Made by a program: the position numbers and the translations under genes. 64,000 nt of DNA from Candidatus Poribacteria bacterium. Lineage in GTDB: Bacteria > Poribacteria > WGA-4E > WGA-3G. The stretch spans positions 2,432,001 to 2,496,000 of the forward strand of contig CAXXLX010000001.1 of assembly GCA_963665235.2 (NCBI GenBank), written 5' to 3'. Positions 2,243 through 15,062 of the stretch are shown here, in pieces; the first letter of the stretch is position 1; each line of letters begins with the position of its first letter. Under the pieces are notes generated by a model that did no database searches, was not told where the DNA came from, and was given only the letters and a program-made list of their open reading frames with translations.

Positions 2243-2923
2243 TTAACCCGCTGCCTTGACCTGCCGCATCAACCGTTCCAGCTTATTTTTATCTTTGACA
2301 CCCTTCGATGCCTCCACACCGGAACAGAGGTCAATGCCGTGGGGTTGGATTGTCTCAATGGCTGCTTTGACGTTCTCCGGACGAATTCCCCCCGCAAAGA
2401 AAACCGGTAGCGGGCTTTCTGCGATAAGTGCAGCAGCAACATGCCAATCACAGGTTTTGCCTGTCCCACCATATCGGGGCGGTTCCTGGCTCATATCAAC
2501 AGTATCAAATAAGAGAAAATCGGCACCAGCATCCCGGTACGCGTCCATTTCTGCTTGAACTGCTAACATATCCACATTTTCTGGACTCCCCGCAGGCAGG
2601 TAAACCGATTTCCAGAGTTGACACGACACGTGTCCCTTAAGTGCTTCGACCTGTTGGGGCGGCTCCTGCCCGAGGAGCTGAACCGCAAACGGTTGAATTC
2701 GTGACACCGCTTCCTGAATCTCCGCCGTTGTTCGATTGTATAGCAGCAAAACCGTCGGAATGGGACTTACTTTAGCAATGTCTACCGCTTGTTCAGTGGT
2801 CAGCGACCGTTCTGAAGAGGCGACATCTACCAATACCCCAGAATAATCTGCACCGGCTTCAGCCGCTAGGTGGGCATCATGAATTGAGGTAGTGCCGCAG
2901 ATTTTGACAACGCACTTGTTCAT
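2243..2923 (-). CDS. trpF: Phosphoribosylanthranilate isomerase
   Basis: VKICG, LLFDT, YGGTGKTCDW, FAGGIRPENV, GIDLCSGVE motifs. Confidence 0.93.
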   Translation of the reverse strand: MNKCVVKICGTTSIHDAHLAAEAGADYSGVLVDVASSERSLTTEQAVDIAKVSPIPTVLLLYNRTTAEIQEAVSRIQPFAVQLLGQEPPQQVEALKGHVSCQLWKSVYLPAGSPENVDMLAVQAEMDAYRDAGADFLLFDTVDMSQEPPRYGGTGKTCDWHVAAALIAESPLPVFFAGGIRPENVKAAIETIQPHGIDLCSGVEASKGVKDKNKLERLMRQVKAAG

Positions 2924-2974
2924 TTTTCTCCTTTCTCCTATCGTAATAGCATCCCATTGCCTTCGACTCCAAGA

Positions 2975-4330
2975 CTAGCGAAACCCCTTCCGTTTAGGAG
3001 GCAGCAACGCCTTAAAAACTTTTGGAGCTCTCTTTTTCAGCTTGTCGAGTTGTCGTCCGATGAGTTTCCGAGTCGACTTATCTTCCTCTATCAATGTCAT
3101 CAATAATAGTATCCTGGCTTGTTCCTTTGCTGGAAATTCAGTTAGCTTATCAAGGATAGCATCTGTGTTTTCCTTCACCTCGTTTGGTTTTAGAAAACGG
3201 CGAATTGACCAAGACAACACAACTGCCATATAGATGTCATCTTGAGACTCGGAGGCTACCAATTCGTTGAGCATATCCTTTGTGTAAGGTTCCAAAAAAG
3301 CACTGTTAAAAGAGATGTCGCTTAGGGTCAGTGCAATGAAGTCAGAGAAAATATTAGGGATATTAACATCCATGGAAGCGAAGATTTCCTGGAATTTCTC
3401 ACGTACCTGGGGCGCATAACGAATTGCGTTTTTAAGCCCATAAGTGTGCTGTTGGGGCGGAGAGTGCCACCCCGCTTGGAGCAGCCGACCGCCAAGAAGT
3501 TTGCCAAGGTCGGCGGTGAGCTCCGTATCGGCATGCGAATAAATTTTTTCCAATAACGATTGACTTATCTCCCGCCGTAGCCCAATGTAAAAGAAGGCAA
3601 CCTCGCTCCAGAGGTCGTCGAAATAGGTGTCTACAATCAGGTCCTCATTTAGGTCCTCAACGTACCCCCAATTTTCATGGATGTAGAACGCAGCGAAGTA
3701 ATCAAGGAAAGACCTATGTTTGAAAATCACTTCCACCTGTCCATTTAAAATGCCTGCCCTCTCTATTTCTCGGACAAACCCCTTCAATTTTTCAGCGTCC
3801 CATCTATATTGCAGTGCATAAGCATTGAGAAACTGTTCAAATTCCTCGCGAGGCACTGCCAGCCTGTTTTTGTTCCGAAACTCTTGATAAGCGAGAACGC
3901 TCAGAAATTTCCTTTTCACGCGATAATCAAATAGCACCTCAATTCCTCTATCCCAATCTTCTGCACCTAGTGCCATGTCAAAAAACCGCTCGTAGAGTTC
4001 TGTGACAGATGCGGGAATCTCCTTATGTTCTTCAACCAACTCAACAAGTAGCATGAGGGAAAGCGGGACTAGCGGAATTTGTGCTTGTATTTTTTCAAGA
4101 CTTTCTTTCATGGCCGTCAACACGTTAGGGTCGCTTACCAATTTGGTAACCATTTTTAAAGCCTGACTGAATTCAAACGGAAGCAATTCATATTTCTGAT
4201 ATTTCTCAGGCAATGTGTTGAGAATGTCAATCTTCCGGCTGGTGAGAATATAGGAGCACCCTATTGATTCCGAAAATTCGTCCAATTTATCAATAACATC
4301 GCGTCGGTGGGGGGGATTCAATTTCATCAA
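2975..4330 (-). pseudogene. C-terminal part of an interrupted REase-NACHT (STAND) NTPase
   Basis: ILTSR sensor, ELLPF, VPLSL, winged-helix FKHRSFLDYFAA motifs; joins the 5631-6665 fragment across an insertion. Confidence 0.8.
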
Positions 4331-4455
4331 AATCTTAGGTGTGTAGACCCCGTTGCTTTAGCACGGGGAGGAAACACCGCTCCTATATTGAAAGTTCAAG
4401 CGTGTGAGGACTTGAAAATCTGTGCGTTTCGCACCCGTTGTGAGGCGTTCACCTT

Positions 4456-5424
4456 CTAAACTATAGATAGAAAACACCCCTTTCGCATTAATACCCGTCC
4501 TCGGTGGGAAGGACGTGTGATACCGTGTTTGCCGTGCTTTATCAGCGTGTTTTTCACAAGTCCTTCGCCTAACACAGTTCCGCCATATCTTGACCGTATT
4601 CCGCCCTTTGCTGGTTGTTCTCGGTGCAAGTTACGCCTTGCTACGGGTATCGGGGATATGCAAAACACGGCTGTATTGTCGGGTTTGAGTGCCATCGCTT
4701 TCTTTGTGTCACCATTGACAACCGAATGTGCCATCACCCAACTATCAACGCAGTGTGCATAGAAGTCATCAGAGAGTTTGTCTTGGCTCTTCTCTAATCC
4801 TAATGCCTTCCTCCGCGCGGAAGTCCACCTGCCTTTATAGCAAAACACATTTCCAACGCCATAGCGTGCTATCAACTCAGAGACAAACCAGCGTTTACCA
4901 ACCTCCAACGGACTAAAAGCTGTGTTCCATCGCTTCTTACCCGGTTTTGTTCTTGCCTTGATGTCCTCCAAACAGATTTTTGTGACAGGATACAAGTCAG
5001 ACACCCAATCCAGGATGCGGAGTTTCCAATCCCAACGGGCCCGGGTGCCTGCGGGGAGTTTCTGTCTGTTCGCACCTTTGTTGGTGCGGTTCTTGCGGTT
5101 GGGACACTTCCGAGAACGCCTACCTCGGCGGAGTTCACGTCTTTTCTCAACCTTCTTTCCAACTTTGTTATGTGCATCTGCCTGCACGTTCAGATACGTA
5201 TGCGTCGCAGATTTGACGGTAAATCCCTCTTTCTTACTTCCAGGATCTACACCGACAACGATGTCTTGTGTTTCTCTATCACTCGGTGCTTTGTTGAGAC
5301 GGACACAATAGACACCGTTGTTCCAATAAGGCGTTGCTTCACCGCGTTTGACAAGTTTCCTCGCACGTGCAGCATGCATCGGCATCAGCTGTTGTCCATC
5401 CTTTGTTTTGACTGGCACAAACAT
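4456..5424 (-). CDS. isrB: IsrB-like RNA-guided nickase (RRXRR/PLMP domain, split RuvC, no HNH); C-terminus probably frameshifted
   Basis: QLMP, VGVDPGSK (RuvC-I), Arg-rich bridge helix RRELRRGRRSRK, CLEDIK (RuvC-II), HCVDS (RuvC-III); no HNH or CxxC. Confidence 0.85.
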   Translation of the reverse strand: MFVPVKTKDGQQLMPMHAARARKLVKRGEATPYWNNGVYCVRLNKAPSDRETQDIVVGVDPGSKKEGFTVKSATHTYLNVQADAHNKVGKKVEKRRELRRGRRSRKCPNRKNRTNKGANRQKLPAGTRARWDWKLRILDWVSDLYPVTKICLEDIKARTKPGKKRWNTAFSPLEVGKRWFVSELIARYGVGNVFCYKGRWTSARRKALGLEKSQDKLSDDFYAHCVDSWVMAHSVVNGDTKKAMALKPDNTAVFCISPIPVARRNLHREQPAKGGIRSRYGGTVLGEGLVKNTLIKHGKHGITRPSHRGRVLMRKGCFLSIV

Positions 5425-5638
5425 AAGTTTGTTTTCTCCTTTCGGGTATATATTGCCCCATCCAGATCAGGGGTTCGTAGTGGAATCGGACTTGGGGAGC
5501 ATCCGAAACATACTTTAGGCTGCCACGCCCAGAACCCCCGATATATTACTGTAGTCAACAAGTTACCCTCGTCTCTGTGATAGCCTTGGCGGGCATCAAA
5601 GACAGGTTTCCCCTATGCTTTAGCTGGGGGTTATTGAC
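5425..5638 (-). ncRNA. omegaRNA (HEARO-like) scaffold
   Basis: Starts GTCAATAACCCCCAGCTAAAGC, can pair with downstream TTGTTGAC, contains GGATGCTCCCCAAGTCC; lies directly upstream of isrB. Confidence 0.8.
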
Positions 5639-6665
5639 CTAATCCATCAACGACCAATACATCTACGTGAAAACGTTTCTCGGTTTCATCGCATTCAAAG
5701 TGTGCTGACAGAAAACTGTCCACTGATTCTAATTCTAAGAATTGTCTTGCGGTGACGACGATAGGTACGGATATTTTTTTATCAGATTTTCCCGGTTTTT
5801 TCAACAAACGTTTGTAGGCATCTCGATACATACCAATGGCTAATTTCGCCATAGCACCTGTTTTACCGGTCCCCGGGTCACCTAATAAAATCAGTTTTTT
5901 CCGCTCCTTGGCGAAAATTTCTCGCAGATGCAAGAAAGAAAATTTCCTTTTTTTCAGTACCGTTCTTATACTCTTTTCATCAAATTTACGTTGCGCGGTG
6001 AGCGGTCTAATTAAGGGCTCAACGAAGTATTCGGACAAATTTTTACCCGATTCCCCACGCCGATGATTTGCCTCTAATTCGCTAATTTTCTTCTCAAGGA
6101 AACTGATAACTCTTCCTTCAAAGAAAATCTCCGGATAAAATTCGGTGAAATTGTCAATGAGCCAATTGATATCGAATACCTTAATTGTGGTTGCCGTTGT
6201 GAGTTCACTTGTAAGTCTTTTTCGCGCATTGTTACTACACTCCCCTGCTAACACAACGTAAACCGTGGAGACGGGTAAATCTTCAAGAATTGATTTCGTT
6301 TGAGCGGGATGTGCTTCAGCTTGTTCGATTTGGCTCTGAATTTCCGCTACTCTTTTCGCGGTGCTCCGCGAGAAAACAGCCTGAGTACGCGATTTTAAGT
6401 CGTCAACATCACCAAGAGTCTTACCGTTGATATGCCCACATTTCACCACAACCCCGATAACATGTGTGATAAGTCCGCTATTTTTAACCAGGACAAGGTC
6501 TTTCCCAAATTCCCGTGCGCCGTGGGTGATTTCTACTAGATAATCAGGCTCCATCGCTTGAAACAATTCTTTCAGGAGCTTATGCAAGTCCGTTTCCCGG
6601 TAATCCATAATGATTTGCCGTCGTAGAGCTTTTGGTAGAGATTGTGCTTTCTTCTTCAAATCCAT
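5631..6665 (-). pseudogene. N-terminal part of the interrupted Mrr-like REase + NACHT NTPase
   Basis: HGAREFGKDLV...VVVK nuclease-like motif, Walker A GDPGTGKT, Walker B VLVVDGL cut at the insertion. Confidence 0.82.
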
Positions 6666-6729
6666 TTTGCAGCTCCTTTTTTAGGAGAATAGGTGAGTAC
6701 AGAAACTCACCCTTACGGTTCGGCAAAAA

Positions 6730-7086
6730 CTACAAAAACACCGTTTGCCGGTCGGCATCCGAATAACAGATAATCATCGTCACAGGTTGCCAGCCGGTGT
6801 TGACAGCGTTGTGTTTTACGTTGCGCGGAATACGTAACATCATACCCGGTTTGAGCGGAATGACTTCATCTCCTAACGTATGGTCACATTCACCGGAGAG
6901 GACATAGATGAGCTCCTCACAGTTCGGATGATAGTGGGGTGGGTTTCCTTCGCCTGCATTAATGTAAACGACACCGAAAGTCATCTCAGCCGCCGGGTCG
7001 ATTTCGTTATTGCATAACCATTTAATGGCACCCCATGGAAATTCAAGAGCACCCGCCTCATTGCTATTGGTTAAGGTGATTTCCAT
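6730..7086 (-). CDS. Cupin domain protein
   Basis: HYHPNCEELIYVLSG and IPRNVKH cupin motifs. Confidence 0.88.
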   Translation of the reverse strand: MEITLTNSNEAGALEFPWGAIKWLCNNEIDPAAEMTFGVVYINAGEGNPPHYHPNCEELIYVLSGECDHTLGDEVIPLKPGMMLRIPRNVKHNAVNTGWQPVTMIICYSDADRQTVFL

Positions 7087-7119
7087 CGTCCTTTTCCTTT
7101 TATAGTAAGCGGCGTTTGT

Positions 7120-7956
7120 CTACACAGAAAAGCATGCCAATCTTTGTTGAACATACCCTTGTAGACCTACTGCCGGTTTTTCATGAAGATAGCCGATAGG
7201 TGCACAGATAGCTCTCACACTGTCGACCTGCTGGTTCACTTCATGATGTGTGTGCCCGAAGAGGACATGTGTGACAAGCGGTTCGTTACGGCAGCGCGCG
7301 CCGAGCCCTTCACTTCCCATGAACGCGCGAAAAAAGTCCCACGGCAACTCGCCGCGGTAGTGGATACACTCCCGAAACGGAACGTGATGTGTGACAACGA
7401 TGATACGCGATACCTGATTCCGGAGAAAATCGAGCTGCTTCCCAAGTTCCGCCTCAAAACGGTGGGCGATAGCTGGGTCGGTGTCGAGCCACCTGGCGTA
7501 GTGCTTATCACTCCAAACTGTCCCCATCAGCTGTTTTTCTGCGTATTGTTCGGTAGAAAAGTTGTAGCCTTCTGGGGCAAACGTATAATCATACCACCCG
7601 ATGGTACCACAGAATCCCACCGCTCCGATGAAATAGGGGGCATCCATGAGTGAAAAAAAACCATTGTCGTGACAAATTTCTGAAATTACCCGGCATTTTT
7701 GAGTGCTTGTCAGGCCAGCCTTTTCGCTAACCCAAATGTCGTGGTTGCCGGGAACGAAAAGCATCGGGCATGTCAAATCGGATTGTTTGAATTCACTAAG
7801 TATTTTGTAAAATTCGGATAAATTTGGCGTTATATCTCCAGCTAGGACAAAAACGTCAAGTTCTTCGGCTTCTATAGCATCGATAAGATACGGCACAATT
7901 GCGCTATTCGCTTCAGTTGCGTCTATATGTAGGTCAGAAATGAGTCCTATCTTCAT
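7120..7956 (-). CDS. Calcineurin-like metallophosphoesterase
   Basis: SDLH, AGD, GNHD, THH, GHTH motifs. Confidence 0.9.
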   Translation of the reverse strand: MKIGLISDLHIDATEANSAIVPYLIDAIEAEELDVFVLAGDITPNLSEFYKILSEFKQSDLTCPMLFVPGNHDIWVSEKAGLTSTQKCRVISEICHDNGFFSLMDAPYFIGAVGFCGTIGWYDYTFAPEGYNFSTEQYAEKQLMGTVWSDKHYARWLDTDPAIAHRFEAELGKQLDFLRNQVSRIIVVTHHVPFRECIHYRGELPWDFFRAFMGSEGLGARCRNEPLVTHVLFGHTHHEVNQQVDSVRAICAPIGYLHEKPAVGLQGYVQQRLACFSV

Positions 7957-14648: not shown

Positions 14649-15062
14649 TTAATCAGCATCGTTAAGAAATTCTTCCAATTGGTTCGACTGCTGCGCGATG
14701 CGGTTCACTTGTCGACGGACCTCCGACCAAGAAATATCTCCAGCCTCCGCTGCAGCTGTAAGTTCTTTTATTCTTTTATTTCCTGCTATCAGTTCCCTCC
14801 CGATAACTTGCAGGGCCTCCAATCTTTCGACCGCTTCGATAATTTCTCTTTTCTGTTTGTCTCGAGTTTCTAGCAGTTCGAAGTAAATTTCTTTCAGTTC
14901 ATCAAAATCTTCGGTGTGGAGACCCCGTTGCTTTTGCTTCGTCTCCTCACCTACGACAATTTCGGGTTCCATGTCGTTATTCCGCTGTGTCAGCAGGGAA
15001 ACACCCGCCGTGAATAGAATAACAATGAGGATAACTATTCCCCAATACCATTTTCTACGCAT
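14649..15062 (-). CDS. Membrane-anchored coiled-coil hypothetical protein
   Basis: AAGGAGG RBS, N-terminal TM helix; N-terminus resembles the protein starting at 19564. Confidence 0.65.
   Translation of the reverse strand: MRRKWYWGIVILIVILFTAGVSLLTQRNNDMEPEIVVGEETKQKQRGLHTEDFDELKEIYFELLETRDKQKREIIEAVERLEALQVIGRELIAGNKRIKELTAAAEAGDISWSEVRRQVNRIAQQSNQLEEFLNDAD

Follow-up and report, generated by a model that had tools for sequence, protein, structure and literature searches.

The locus analyzed here raises the question of how a gene for a NACHT-type protein came to be divided in two, and of what the intervening DNA would do to undivided copies of that gene. It lies in a 64,000-nt window (the whole stretch of DNA that was analyzed) of a Candidatus Poribacteria genome (GCA_963665235.2, contig CAXXLX010000001.1, positions 2,432,001 to 2,496,000), in which two parts of a host gene, 5639..6665 and 2975..4327 (both minus strand), flank 1311 nt at 4328..5638. 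Plain coordinates are positions in this window, and those prefixed C1: or C2: refer to the same genome. The intervening DNA is very probably an ISC1-type element, composed of an omegaRNA and isrB, that inserted 5′ of the tetranucleotide ATGA in the NACHT gene and is now decaying.

The 5′ part of the host gene (residues 1–342) encodes a Mrr_cat-like N-terminal domain and a Walker A motif, GDPGTGKT, and continues up to ...VVDGL, while the 3′ part encodes the rest of the NACHT/STAND module and a C-terminal helical region. As they stand, these parts belong to an open reading frame (ORF) of 344 codons (6665..5631, minus) ending in ...VLVVDGLGQ and a stop, and to one of 451 codons in another frame (4330..2975, minus) that begins ...HRRDVIDKLDEFSESIGCSYILTSRK. 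The minus-strand flanks of the element read ...GTCGTTGATGGATTAG and ATGAAATTGAA (also given as ...GTCGTTGATGGATTAG and ATGAAATTGAATCCCCCCCACCG), and joining them yields VVDGLDEIE, as proposed in an earlier interpretation made from the DNA alone (the sequence-only reading). Within the NACHT signature DGLDE, the insertion point separates the codon for L from that for the following D. The joined frame encounters a stop unless one base is dropped from a seven-base run at 4309..4315 (C7 on the minus strand, G7 on the plus strand), after which it reads DEIESPHRRDVIDKLDEF / ...SPHRRDVIDKLDEF; this run is one base longer than in the empty alleles described below and constitutes a second lesion of the host gene. 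When 40 related genomes were searched using the N-terminal fragment as query, two proved to contain the gene, uninterrupted, with 794 and 782 open codons. Dropping the extra C, to which the sequence-only reading had also pointed, restores a frame matching these homologues for the single-copy, ~790-aa host gene. Identity to the two intact homologues is 74% and 62% for the 5′ part (over their first 343 residues) and 71% and 64% for the 3′ part (over residues ~345–794). At the join, the homologues read IDPSYRRDMVDRLDEF and IESTNQGSVIDRLDEL (IIVDGLDEIDPSYRRDMVDRLDEF and LMIDGLDEIESTNQGSVIDRLDEL), continuous through D[GAS]LDE and with no length difference. D[GAS]xDE occupies the join site in 114 of 121 relatives from a protein search (DGLDE in 86, DALDE in 24, and DSLDE in 4), and an alignment of 38 sequences shows no variation at D339, L341, D342, or E343.

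To detect undivided alleles in other samples, contigs of four public runs were compared with the window over 3600–6400. In a 1030-nt contig of run X6 (depth 15.1), 4327 directly adjoins 5639, so that exactly 1311 bases are absent, and one base is missing at 4309. A 695-nt contig of run X1 (depth 17.3) joins 4314 to 5639 with ATTCAATTTCAT between them; since ATTCAATTTCAT corresponds to 4316–4327, this contig represents the same empty allele with six G. The exact join and the six-base run in X6 and X1 indicate that both empty alleles carry an intact reading frame. The insertion is polymorphic in nature, and related populations carry the intact gene; the empty allele anticipated by the sequence-only reading is found in the X6 and X1 contigs, alongside intact homologues in two related genomes. 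Systematic homopolymer error was considered as a source of the extra C in the window and is unlikely, since a frame-switch signature occurs at 1 of 516 G/C runs of seven bases genome-wide (both strands counted); a single error is possible. The extra base probably reflects genuine decay in a gene that was already disrupted.

Away from the insertion point, the window differs from both X1 and X6 at seven positions within 49 nt (5676–5724, 38–86 nt from the insertion point), outside of which X1 is otherwise nearly identical to the window. Three of these differences are synonymous and the others produce D326E, T328I, and K330S. The amino-acid states are mixed relative to those of relatives, among which the region is variable. 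Recombination or co-conversion may have produced this patch, or it may be a plain variable region.

Repetition within the genome identifies 4328..5638 (minus) as a discrete mobile element. A DNA search of the genome with this sequence returned 59 matching pieces, four of which are other copies that align end to end (query 1–1311) at 96, 95, 93, and 74% identity. Every copy with a 5′ end begins GTCAATAACCCCC and is preceded by unrelated flank, and the copies share a 3′ terminus, ...GAAGATTTTG, read as ...CCGAAGATTTTG or a near variant in every 3′ end. The end-to-end copies and the exact 1311-nt skip in the X6 contig bear out the limits assigned to the element by the sequence-only reading. Subterminal hairpins are present and both terminal inverted repeats and target-site duplication are absent, characteristics of a non-autonomous, ISC1-like element of the IS200/IS605 (ISC) type. 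The hairpin at the omegaRNA end (5610..5630, minus; CCCCCAGCTAAAGCATAGGGG) contains one C-A mismatch in the window copy, where pair 13–25 of this helix (helix 2) is broken in the window row only of a scaffold alignment described below, and the hairpin at the isrB-distal end lies at 4348..4368 (minus; CCCCGTGCTAAAGCAACGGGG). Within its terminal 25 nt, the window copy differs at two positions from the ...GGGGTCTCCACACCGAAGATTTTG end common to most other copies. Other private features of this copy are an AAA insertion at 5607–5609, a 13-nt deletion, and 38 substitutions relative to the nearest copy.

Directly after the 3′ end of the element lies ATGA (4324..4327, minus), the candidate target-adjacent motif (TAM) and TnpA target site, formed in the host gene by the last two bases of the D codon and the first two of the E codon (GAT GAA). 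ATGA directly follows 27 of 30 element 3′ ends located by pattern in the same genome, the remaining three being followed by AGGA, ATAC, and ATTG. In the related genome G053, ATGA was observed at 31 of the 32 ends examined among 34 matches, and three further genomes contributed ATGA at 5 of 5 ends. Since ATGA lies within the D and E codons and is present as a single occurrence in the empty alleles, it represents target sequence and not element sequence. The junctions of other copies agree with the ATGA TAM of the sequence-only reading, and the statements that it had treated as established are in keeping with the available text of PMC9581776 (an NTGA TAM for IsrB of Desulfovirgula thermocuniculi, DtIsrB) and of 10.1101/2023.03.14.532601 (a guide 5′ of the scaffold, outside the transposon).

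The protein encoded within the element is IsrB, the HNH-less homologue of IscB, as had been claimed. Its ORF (4456..5424, minus; 322 codons) matched Pfam RRXRR with an E value of 1.8e-29 and 103 bits (cut-off 25). In an intact 359-aa paralogue, RRXRR (105.5 bits) was the only Pfam match and no HNH family was matched at E ≤ 1; NCBIfam guided_IscB matched the window ORF below its cut-off. DtIsrB (8dmb) was the best solved relative (5.5e-25, residues 3–296) and aligned continuously with the intact paralogue, while IscB chains aligned only over residues ~4–119. The window ORF contains QQLMPMH at residues 11–17, in the N-terminal PLMP/arginine-rich region, and its VGVDPG, LEDIK, and AHCVDS segments align with LAVDPG, TEDVR, and THANDA of 8dmb; the aligned acidic and His residues are presumably RuvC residues. 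Deletions of 3 nt and 10 nt relative to the closest copies (C1:120253 and C1:1443734), located at 4499..4511 (minus) and not in a homopolymer, cause a frameshift, with the frame lost after ...HGITRP and the last ~50 residues out of frame. This out-of-frame remainder (4361..4498, minus) was recovered as a second tblastn high-scoring segment pair (HSP), and frame-0 translation of it gives ...GINAKGVFSIYSLEGERLTTGAKRTDFQVLTRLNFQYRSGVSSPC. The lost residues correspond to the TAM-interacting region of DtIsrB, a domain that is intact in the paralogues and not in the window copy. The window copy is decaying, as evidenced by the IsrB frameshift, the broken hairpin pair on the omegaRNA side, and the two substitutions at the other terminus. 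By tblastn, 26 IsrB-coding loci were detected in the genome, 19 of them full-length in a single HSP (64–100% identity), and intact IsrB paralogues with 93–99% protein identity are among the genome's complement. Any activity of the window element would need such paralogues in trans.

Upstream of isrB, a predicted omegaRNA scaffold occupies 5425..5638 (minus), with an uncertain 3′ end. The Rfam HEARO model (RF02033) aligned in its entirety, from model position 1 to 211, with 5638..5367 (21.8 bits, E 0.13), starting at the first base of the element. Seven of 12 other copies searched likewise matched HEARO from the first base, at 29–35 bits and below the gathering score of 83, and the other five had no match at E ≤ 1. 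From an alignment of sixteen scaffolds, drawn from divergent subfamilies and from miniature copies, RNAalifold predicted 31 pairs, 9 with compensatory changes. In a structure drawn by hand, with nine helices and 48 pairs, 90.8% of cells were paired as compared to 35–48% when the 3′ partners were slid by 1–3 columns, 24 of the 48 pairs were changed on both sides, and 0 of 500 shuffles matched its covariation score, in a test that favors this structure because it was derived from the same sequences. Two putative pseudoknot helices are invariant, so covariation gives no test of them. These observations point to a structured omegaRNA beginning at the first base of the element, in agreement with the sequence-only reading. 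The 5′ flanks differ among all copies; since the scaffold starts at the boundary and every flank is different, any guide must come from the flank. The predicted guide is ATTGGTCGTTGATGGATTAG (5639..5658, minus), host-gene sequence directly 5′ of the first base of the scaffold, with a length of 20 nt borrowed from DtIsrB (PMC9581776). It is readable as had been proposed, on sequence grounds, and remains a predicted guide.

A promoter and terminator scan of 2800–7200 was uninformative on omegaRNA transcription, with five promoter-like sites where 5.7 were expected and the minus strand devoid of them. Contigs of a metatranscriptome run, X8, cover 4392–5580, are deepest at 5480–5573, and include none on the flanks. 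Short contigs reach a depth of 60–137 on 5486–5580, in the omegaRNA region, versus 21–27 on the ORF; the same comparison in the DNA run of that study gives ~283 versus ~55–75. Since this DNA run has the empty allele here, the X8 contigs come from other copies. They show no ends, strand, or level, and are a weak hint of transcription of the family or of omegaRNA abundance.

No copy of the element family contains tnpA. The genome contains 13 matches to Y1_Tnp (PF01797), three of which sit in ~1.8-kb IS605 elements together with a 403-aa TnpB (OrfB_IS605 and a Cas12f1-like TNB domain; C2:338532-340313, C1:31462-33239, and C1:3153045-3154819). The hairpin that bounds the IsrB elements, CCCCCAGCTAAAGCnnGGGGG, also bounds these TnpA-TnpB elements, whose genes are antisense to the IsrB orientation. 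A plausible course of events would begin with mobilization by a Y1 transposase (TnpA) supplied in trans, for which these same-genome elements, with their common hairpin, would be the likeliest source. Transcription entering on the same strand from the host promoter would read the guide from the host gene, and guide ATTGGTCGTTGATGGATTAG would match the empty allele adjoining ATGA. Were the element still acting, IsrB from a paralogue with omegaRNA would nick the empty allele, and the nick would favor copying of the element back by recombination, the retention or homing role shown for TnpB and IscB. The statement of the sequence-only reading that the element would target any intact allele of the gene is likewise to be read conditionally, as the window IsrB is frameshifted and IsrB is a nickase.

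Several observations weigh against parts of this account. The ATAA, and not ATGA, flanks of the TnpA-TnpB elements suggest that these may not be the mobilizing partners. The HEARO match of the window copy reaches only 21.8 bits against a gathering score of 83. IsrB is a nickase, whereas the retention experiments described in the available text of 10.1101/2023.03.14.532601 concern double-strand cutters. No contig spanning the occupied junctions is found among the pieces listed, and the depth of the X1 contig with the empty joint (17.3) equals that of its flanks (17–20). The 20-nt target appears unchanged in the empty alleles, with no difference at 5639–5675, only insofar as the differences listed are concerned.

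The probable class of the interrupted protein was examined by profile search. Once the element is removed, the gene has both Walker A GDPGTGKT and DGLDE, and D[GAS]hDE is the Walker B signature that defines NACHT (10.1101/2022.07.19.500537). Among 38 relatives, Pfam matches at E ≤ 0.001 were obtained for nSTAND_NTPase4 in 31, NACHT in 25, and Mrr_cat in 15, with NACHT exceeding its cut-off only in some (e.g., P0026, 26.8 versus 26.7). In the intact homologue P0001, STAND/NACHT-type matches fall just under the Pfam cut-offs (NACHT, 23.5), and in the 3′ part in the window, nSTAND_NTPase4 and NB-ARC matches are likewise below the cut-offs. Mrr_cat (PF04471) exceeded its cut-off at residues ~25–79 in the three relatives checked (P0017, P0026, and P0106), while neither the window's own N-terminal fragment (E ≤ 0.1) nor P0001 produced a match. 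The restriction-endonuclease motif of Mrr_cat is a conserved D followed by (Q/E)xK. In this family D56 is invariant and K75 nearly so, and the residue two before K is V in the family consensus. The earlier assignment of the host gene as a restriction endonuclease–NACHT fusion is thus upheld for the D[GAS]hDE Walker B, while the nuclease domain is apparent only at the level of the family (15 of 38 relatives). A profile search of the PDB with the host-gene family gave no match at E ≤ 0.01, PADLOC assigned 0 families to P0001, and NCBIfam antiphage_EruA reached 33 bits against a cut-off of 1000. Genes neighboring the host gene are not defense genes. A role in defense is suggested by domain architecture only.

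Comparison of insertion sites across the family revealed a niche different from that of the window copy. At 15 of 27 ATGA-flanked ends, an ORF of at least 100 codons starts at that ATG, as compared to a background of 17.5% of 39,677 ATGA sites. Of the 23 other copies that are flanked by ATGA and have both ends located, nine additionally have GGAG, GAGG, or AGGA 4–17 nt before the insertion point, against a background of 3.5% for a start codon with such a Shine-Dalgarno-like motif (binomial p 4e-8, which overstates the significance since the copies are related). At these sites, the ATGA TAM is the start codon plus A, and the downstream gene is co-oriented with the element; signal-peptide-like N termini are frequent among the downstream proteins, which include argJ. 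Examples are C1:504553-505002, C1:672984-674247, C1:935821-934558, and C2:343511-342216. G053 repeats this pattern at 15 of 31 ends and in 7 of 21 paired copies (L043, L051, L061, L071, L073, and L074, for example). The usual niche of the family is the gap between ribosome-binding site and start codon, and the internal ATGA of the NACHT gene is an exception. Most likely, the hit on a probable defense gene is an accident of that internal ATGA. A start-codon niche could account for the orientation bias published for IscB elements as well as for transcription of the guide. In the available text, "start codon" has no occurrence in PMC4810608 and one (an axis legend) in 10.1101/2023.03.14.532601; Figs. 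S2–S6 of PMC4810608 may already show such sites.

Other explanations of the occupied allele were weighed against insertion and decay. If a repeat copy had been misplaced in the NACHT gene during assembly and the extra C were a homopolymer error, occupied junctions without read-level support would be expected, as would the restriction of X1 and X6 to the empty allele at the locus; the assembly alone supports the occupied allele and the seventh base of the 4309–4315 run. However, the junctions follow the family rule exactly (a GTCAAT start and a ...TTTTG end followed by ATGA), the window copy has private features, and homopolymer frame-switch signatures are rare genome-wide, making such an artifact very unlikely. 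We give equally little credence to a reversible switch, in which precise excision by TnpA would restore the NACHT gene and provide on/off control of costly immunity. Excision of IS200/IS605 elements is scarless (10.1101/2023.03.14.532601) and the empty allele is an exact rejoining, but the occupied allele also carries a +1 frameshift, so that excision alone would not restore the gene, and in the window copy both the right-end hairpin and the left-end terminus are mutated. Moreover, further differences between the empty alleles and the window indicate that the former are other lineages and not excision products of this one.

Slightly less remote, though still improbable, is an active gene drive against an immune gene, in which RNA-guided nicking and recombination spread the element into intact NACHT alleles and loss of the gene is driven. 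In the empty allele, which occurs in nature alongside the occupied one, both the guide and ATGA find a match, the intact IsrB paralogues described above could act in trans, and the cluster of seven differences at 5676–5724 could be a co-conversion tract, X1 otherwise differing little. Yet the window IsrB is frameshifted and both end regions are damaged, the host gene has a second lesion, as an old pseudogene evolving neutrally would, all of the flank depth in X1 is explained by the empty allele, and the 5676–5724 patch is variable across relatives. Only 5 of 30 mapped 5′ ends are preceded by 100 or more open codons on the strand of the element, suggesting few intragenic copies, and 9 of 23 copies lie at start codons with no sign of defense-gene targeting. 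We regard as just as doubtful the fuller version, in which the element homed into an anti-phage gene, 5676–5724 is the co-converted flank, and the habit of settling between ribosome-binding site and start codon secures transcription of the guide. If true, homing would amount to a natural gene drive removing immunity. Insertion 5′ of ATGA followed by decay of the copy is the preferred reading.

Variation among the copies was also noted. Miniature copies of 450–567 nt contain both ends, the omegaRNA scaffold, and an extra ~40-nt hairpin, with no isrB (C1:19462-19938, 337433-337901, 504553-505002, 532866-533432, 680877-681345, and 1154421-1154878); in G053, miniature copies of ~415 nt account for 17 or more of the 21 paired copies within the set of 32 ends examined. 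Some copies have an extra ~45–90 nt between scaffold and isrB start, in which a CATCCGTTTT motif recurs and a second AGGAG is present (C1:2520840-2522249, 3813622-3814966, 3020110-3021517, and 3598792-3600092), and in some of these a 24-nt insert (about PRSHRGHP) is present near the IsrB C terminus, the others being without it. At 14903–14937 (minus), 35 nt of the isrB-distal end persist as a solo remnant, followed by ATGA and in frame inside a 137-codon ORF (14649..15062, minus). The copy at C1:1658347 has three tRNA genes ~420–750 nt upstream (L004:752-1078) on the opposite strand.

The window element fits published ISC/IscB/IsrB biology and adds no new principle; the mechanism has already been published as insertion between N and ATGA (Kapitonov, Makarova, Koonin 2016) and as donor-joint targeting (Meers 2023). 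ISC elements with HNH-less IscB, 5′-GT termini, subterminal hairpins, and insertion between N and ATGA were described in PMC4810608, along with TnpB partners that are antisense and have the same termini, and with related strains in which the sites are empty. ISC1-1_MA of Microcystis aeruginosa (PMC4810608) is a comparable ISC1 transposon: an HNH-less IscB homologue is its sole gene, its terminus is 5′-GT(CA), it has subterminal hairpins and no target duplication, it inserts between N and ATGA, it has termini in common with IS605-type elements carrying antisense tnpB, and its empty sites came to light through comparison of genomes. The family described here differs in host lineage and sequence, in the many subfamilies within one genome (64–100% protein identity), and in its omegaRNA-only miniatures. 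The likeness to HEARO RF02033 extends over model positions 1–211 from the first base of the element, with a GUCAA...UUGAC closing helix, at 21.8–35 bits as compared to the gathering score of 83 and with no match at E ≤ 1 in 5 of 12 other copies. The DtIsrB-omegaRNA complex (Desulfovirgula thermocuniculi, 8DMB) is similar in its PLMP-like N terminus and RuvC motifs, its ~350 aa, a TAM ending in TGA, and a guide 5′ of the scaffold. DtIsrB nicks the non-target strand beside an NTGA/TTGA TAM (PMC9581776; Hirano et al. 2022). The scaffold measures 214 nt from boundary to start codon here as compared to ~262 nt, and ATGA (27 of 30 ends, from sequence only) stands against the NTGA/TTGA measured for DtIsrB.

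On the side of the host gene, bNACHT25, a Mrr-like restriction endonuclease–NACHT anti-phage protein (10.1101/2022.07.19.500537; Kibby et al.), resembles the interrupted protein by architecture only, with an N-terminal Mrr-type nuclease domain followed by NACHT with D[GAS]hDE; bNACHT25 is anti-phage, whereas the intact homologue of the window gene has no PADLOC match. The start-codon observation is the more useful lead as compared to the NACHT insertion itself. For IscB, the scaffold derives from the transposon end, the guide lies outside the right end, transcription has to begin outside the element, elements and the genes upstream of them point the same way, and targeting of the donor joint by the guide retains the transposon (10.1101/2023.03.14.532601; Meers et al.). 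The IS605-family IscB/TnpB elements of Geobacillus stearothermophilus in that study are similar to the window element in being non-autonomous, in the origin of scaffold and guide, in a TAM common to transposase and nuclease, in upstream-gene orientation, and in a guide that matches the donor joint or empty site. Their nucleases make double-strand breaks and were tested, whereas that of the window is a predicted nickase in a broken copy. Here the occupied site, empty site, guide, and TAM of one IsrB element can be read together in a natural case, which offers material to test whether a nickase-type OMEGA system can support retention or homing as double-strand cutters do.

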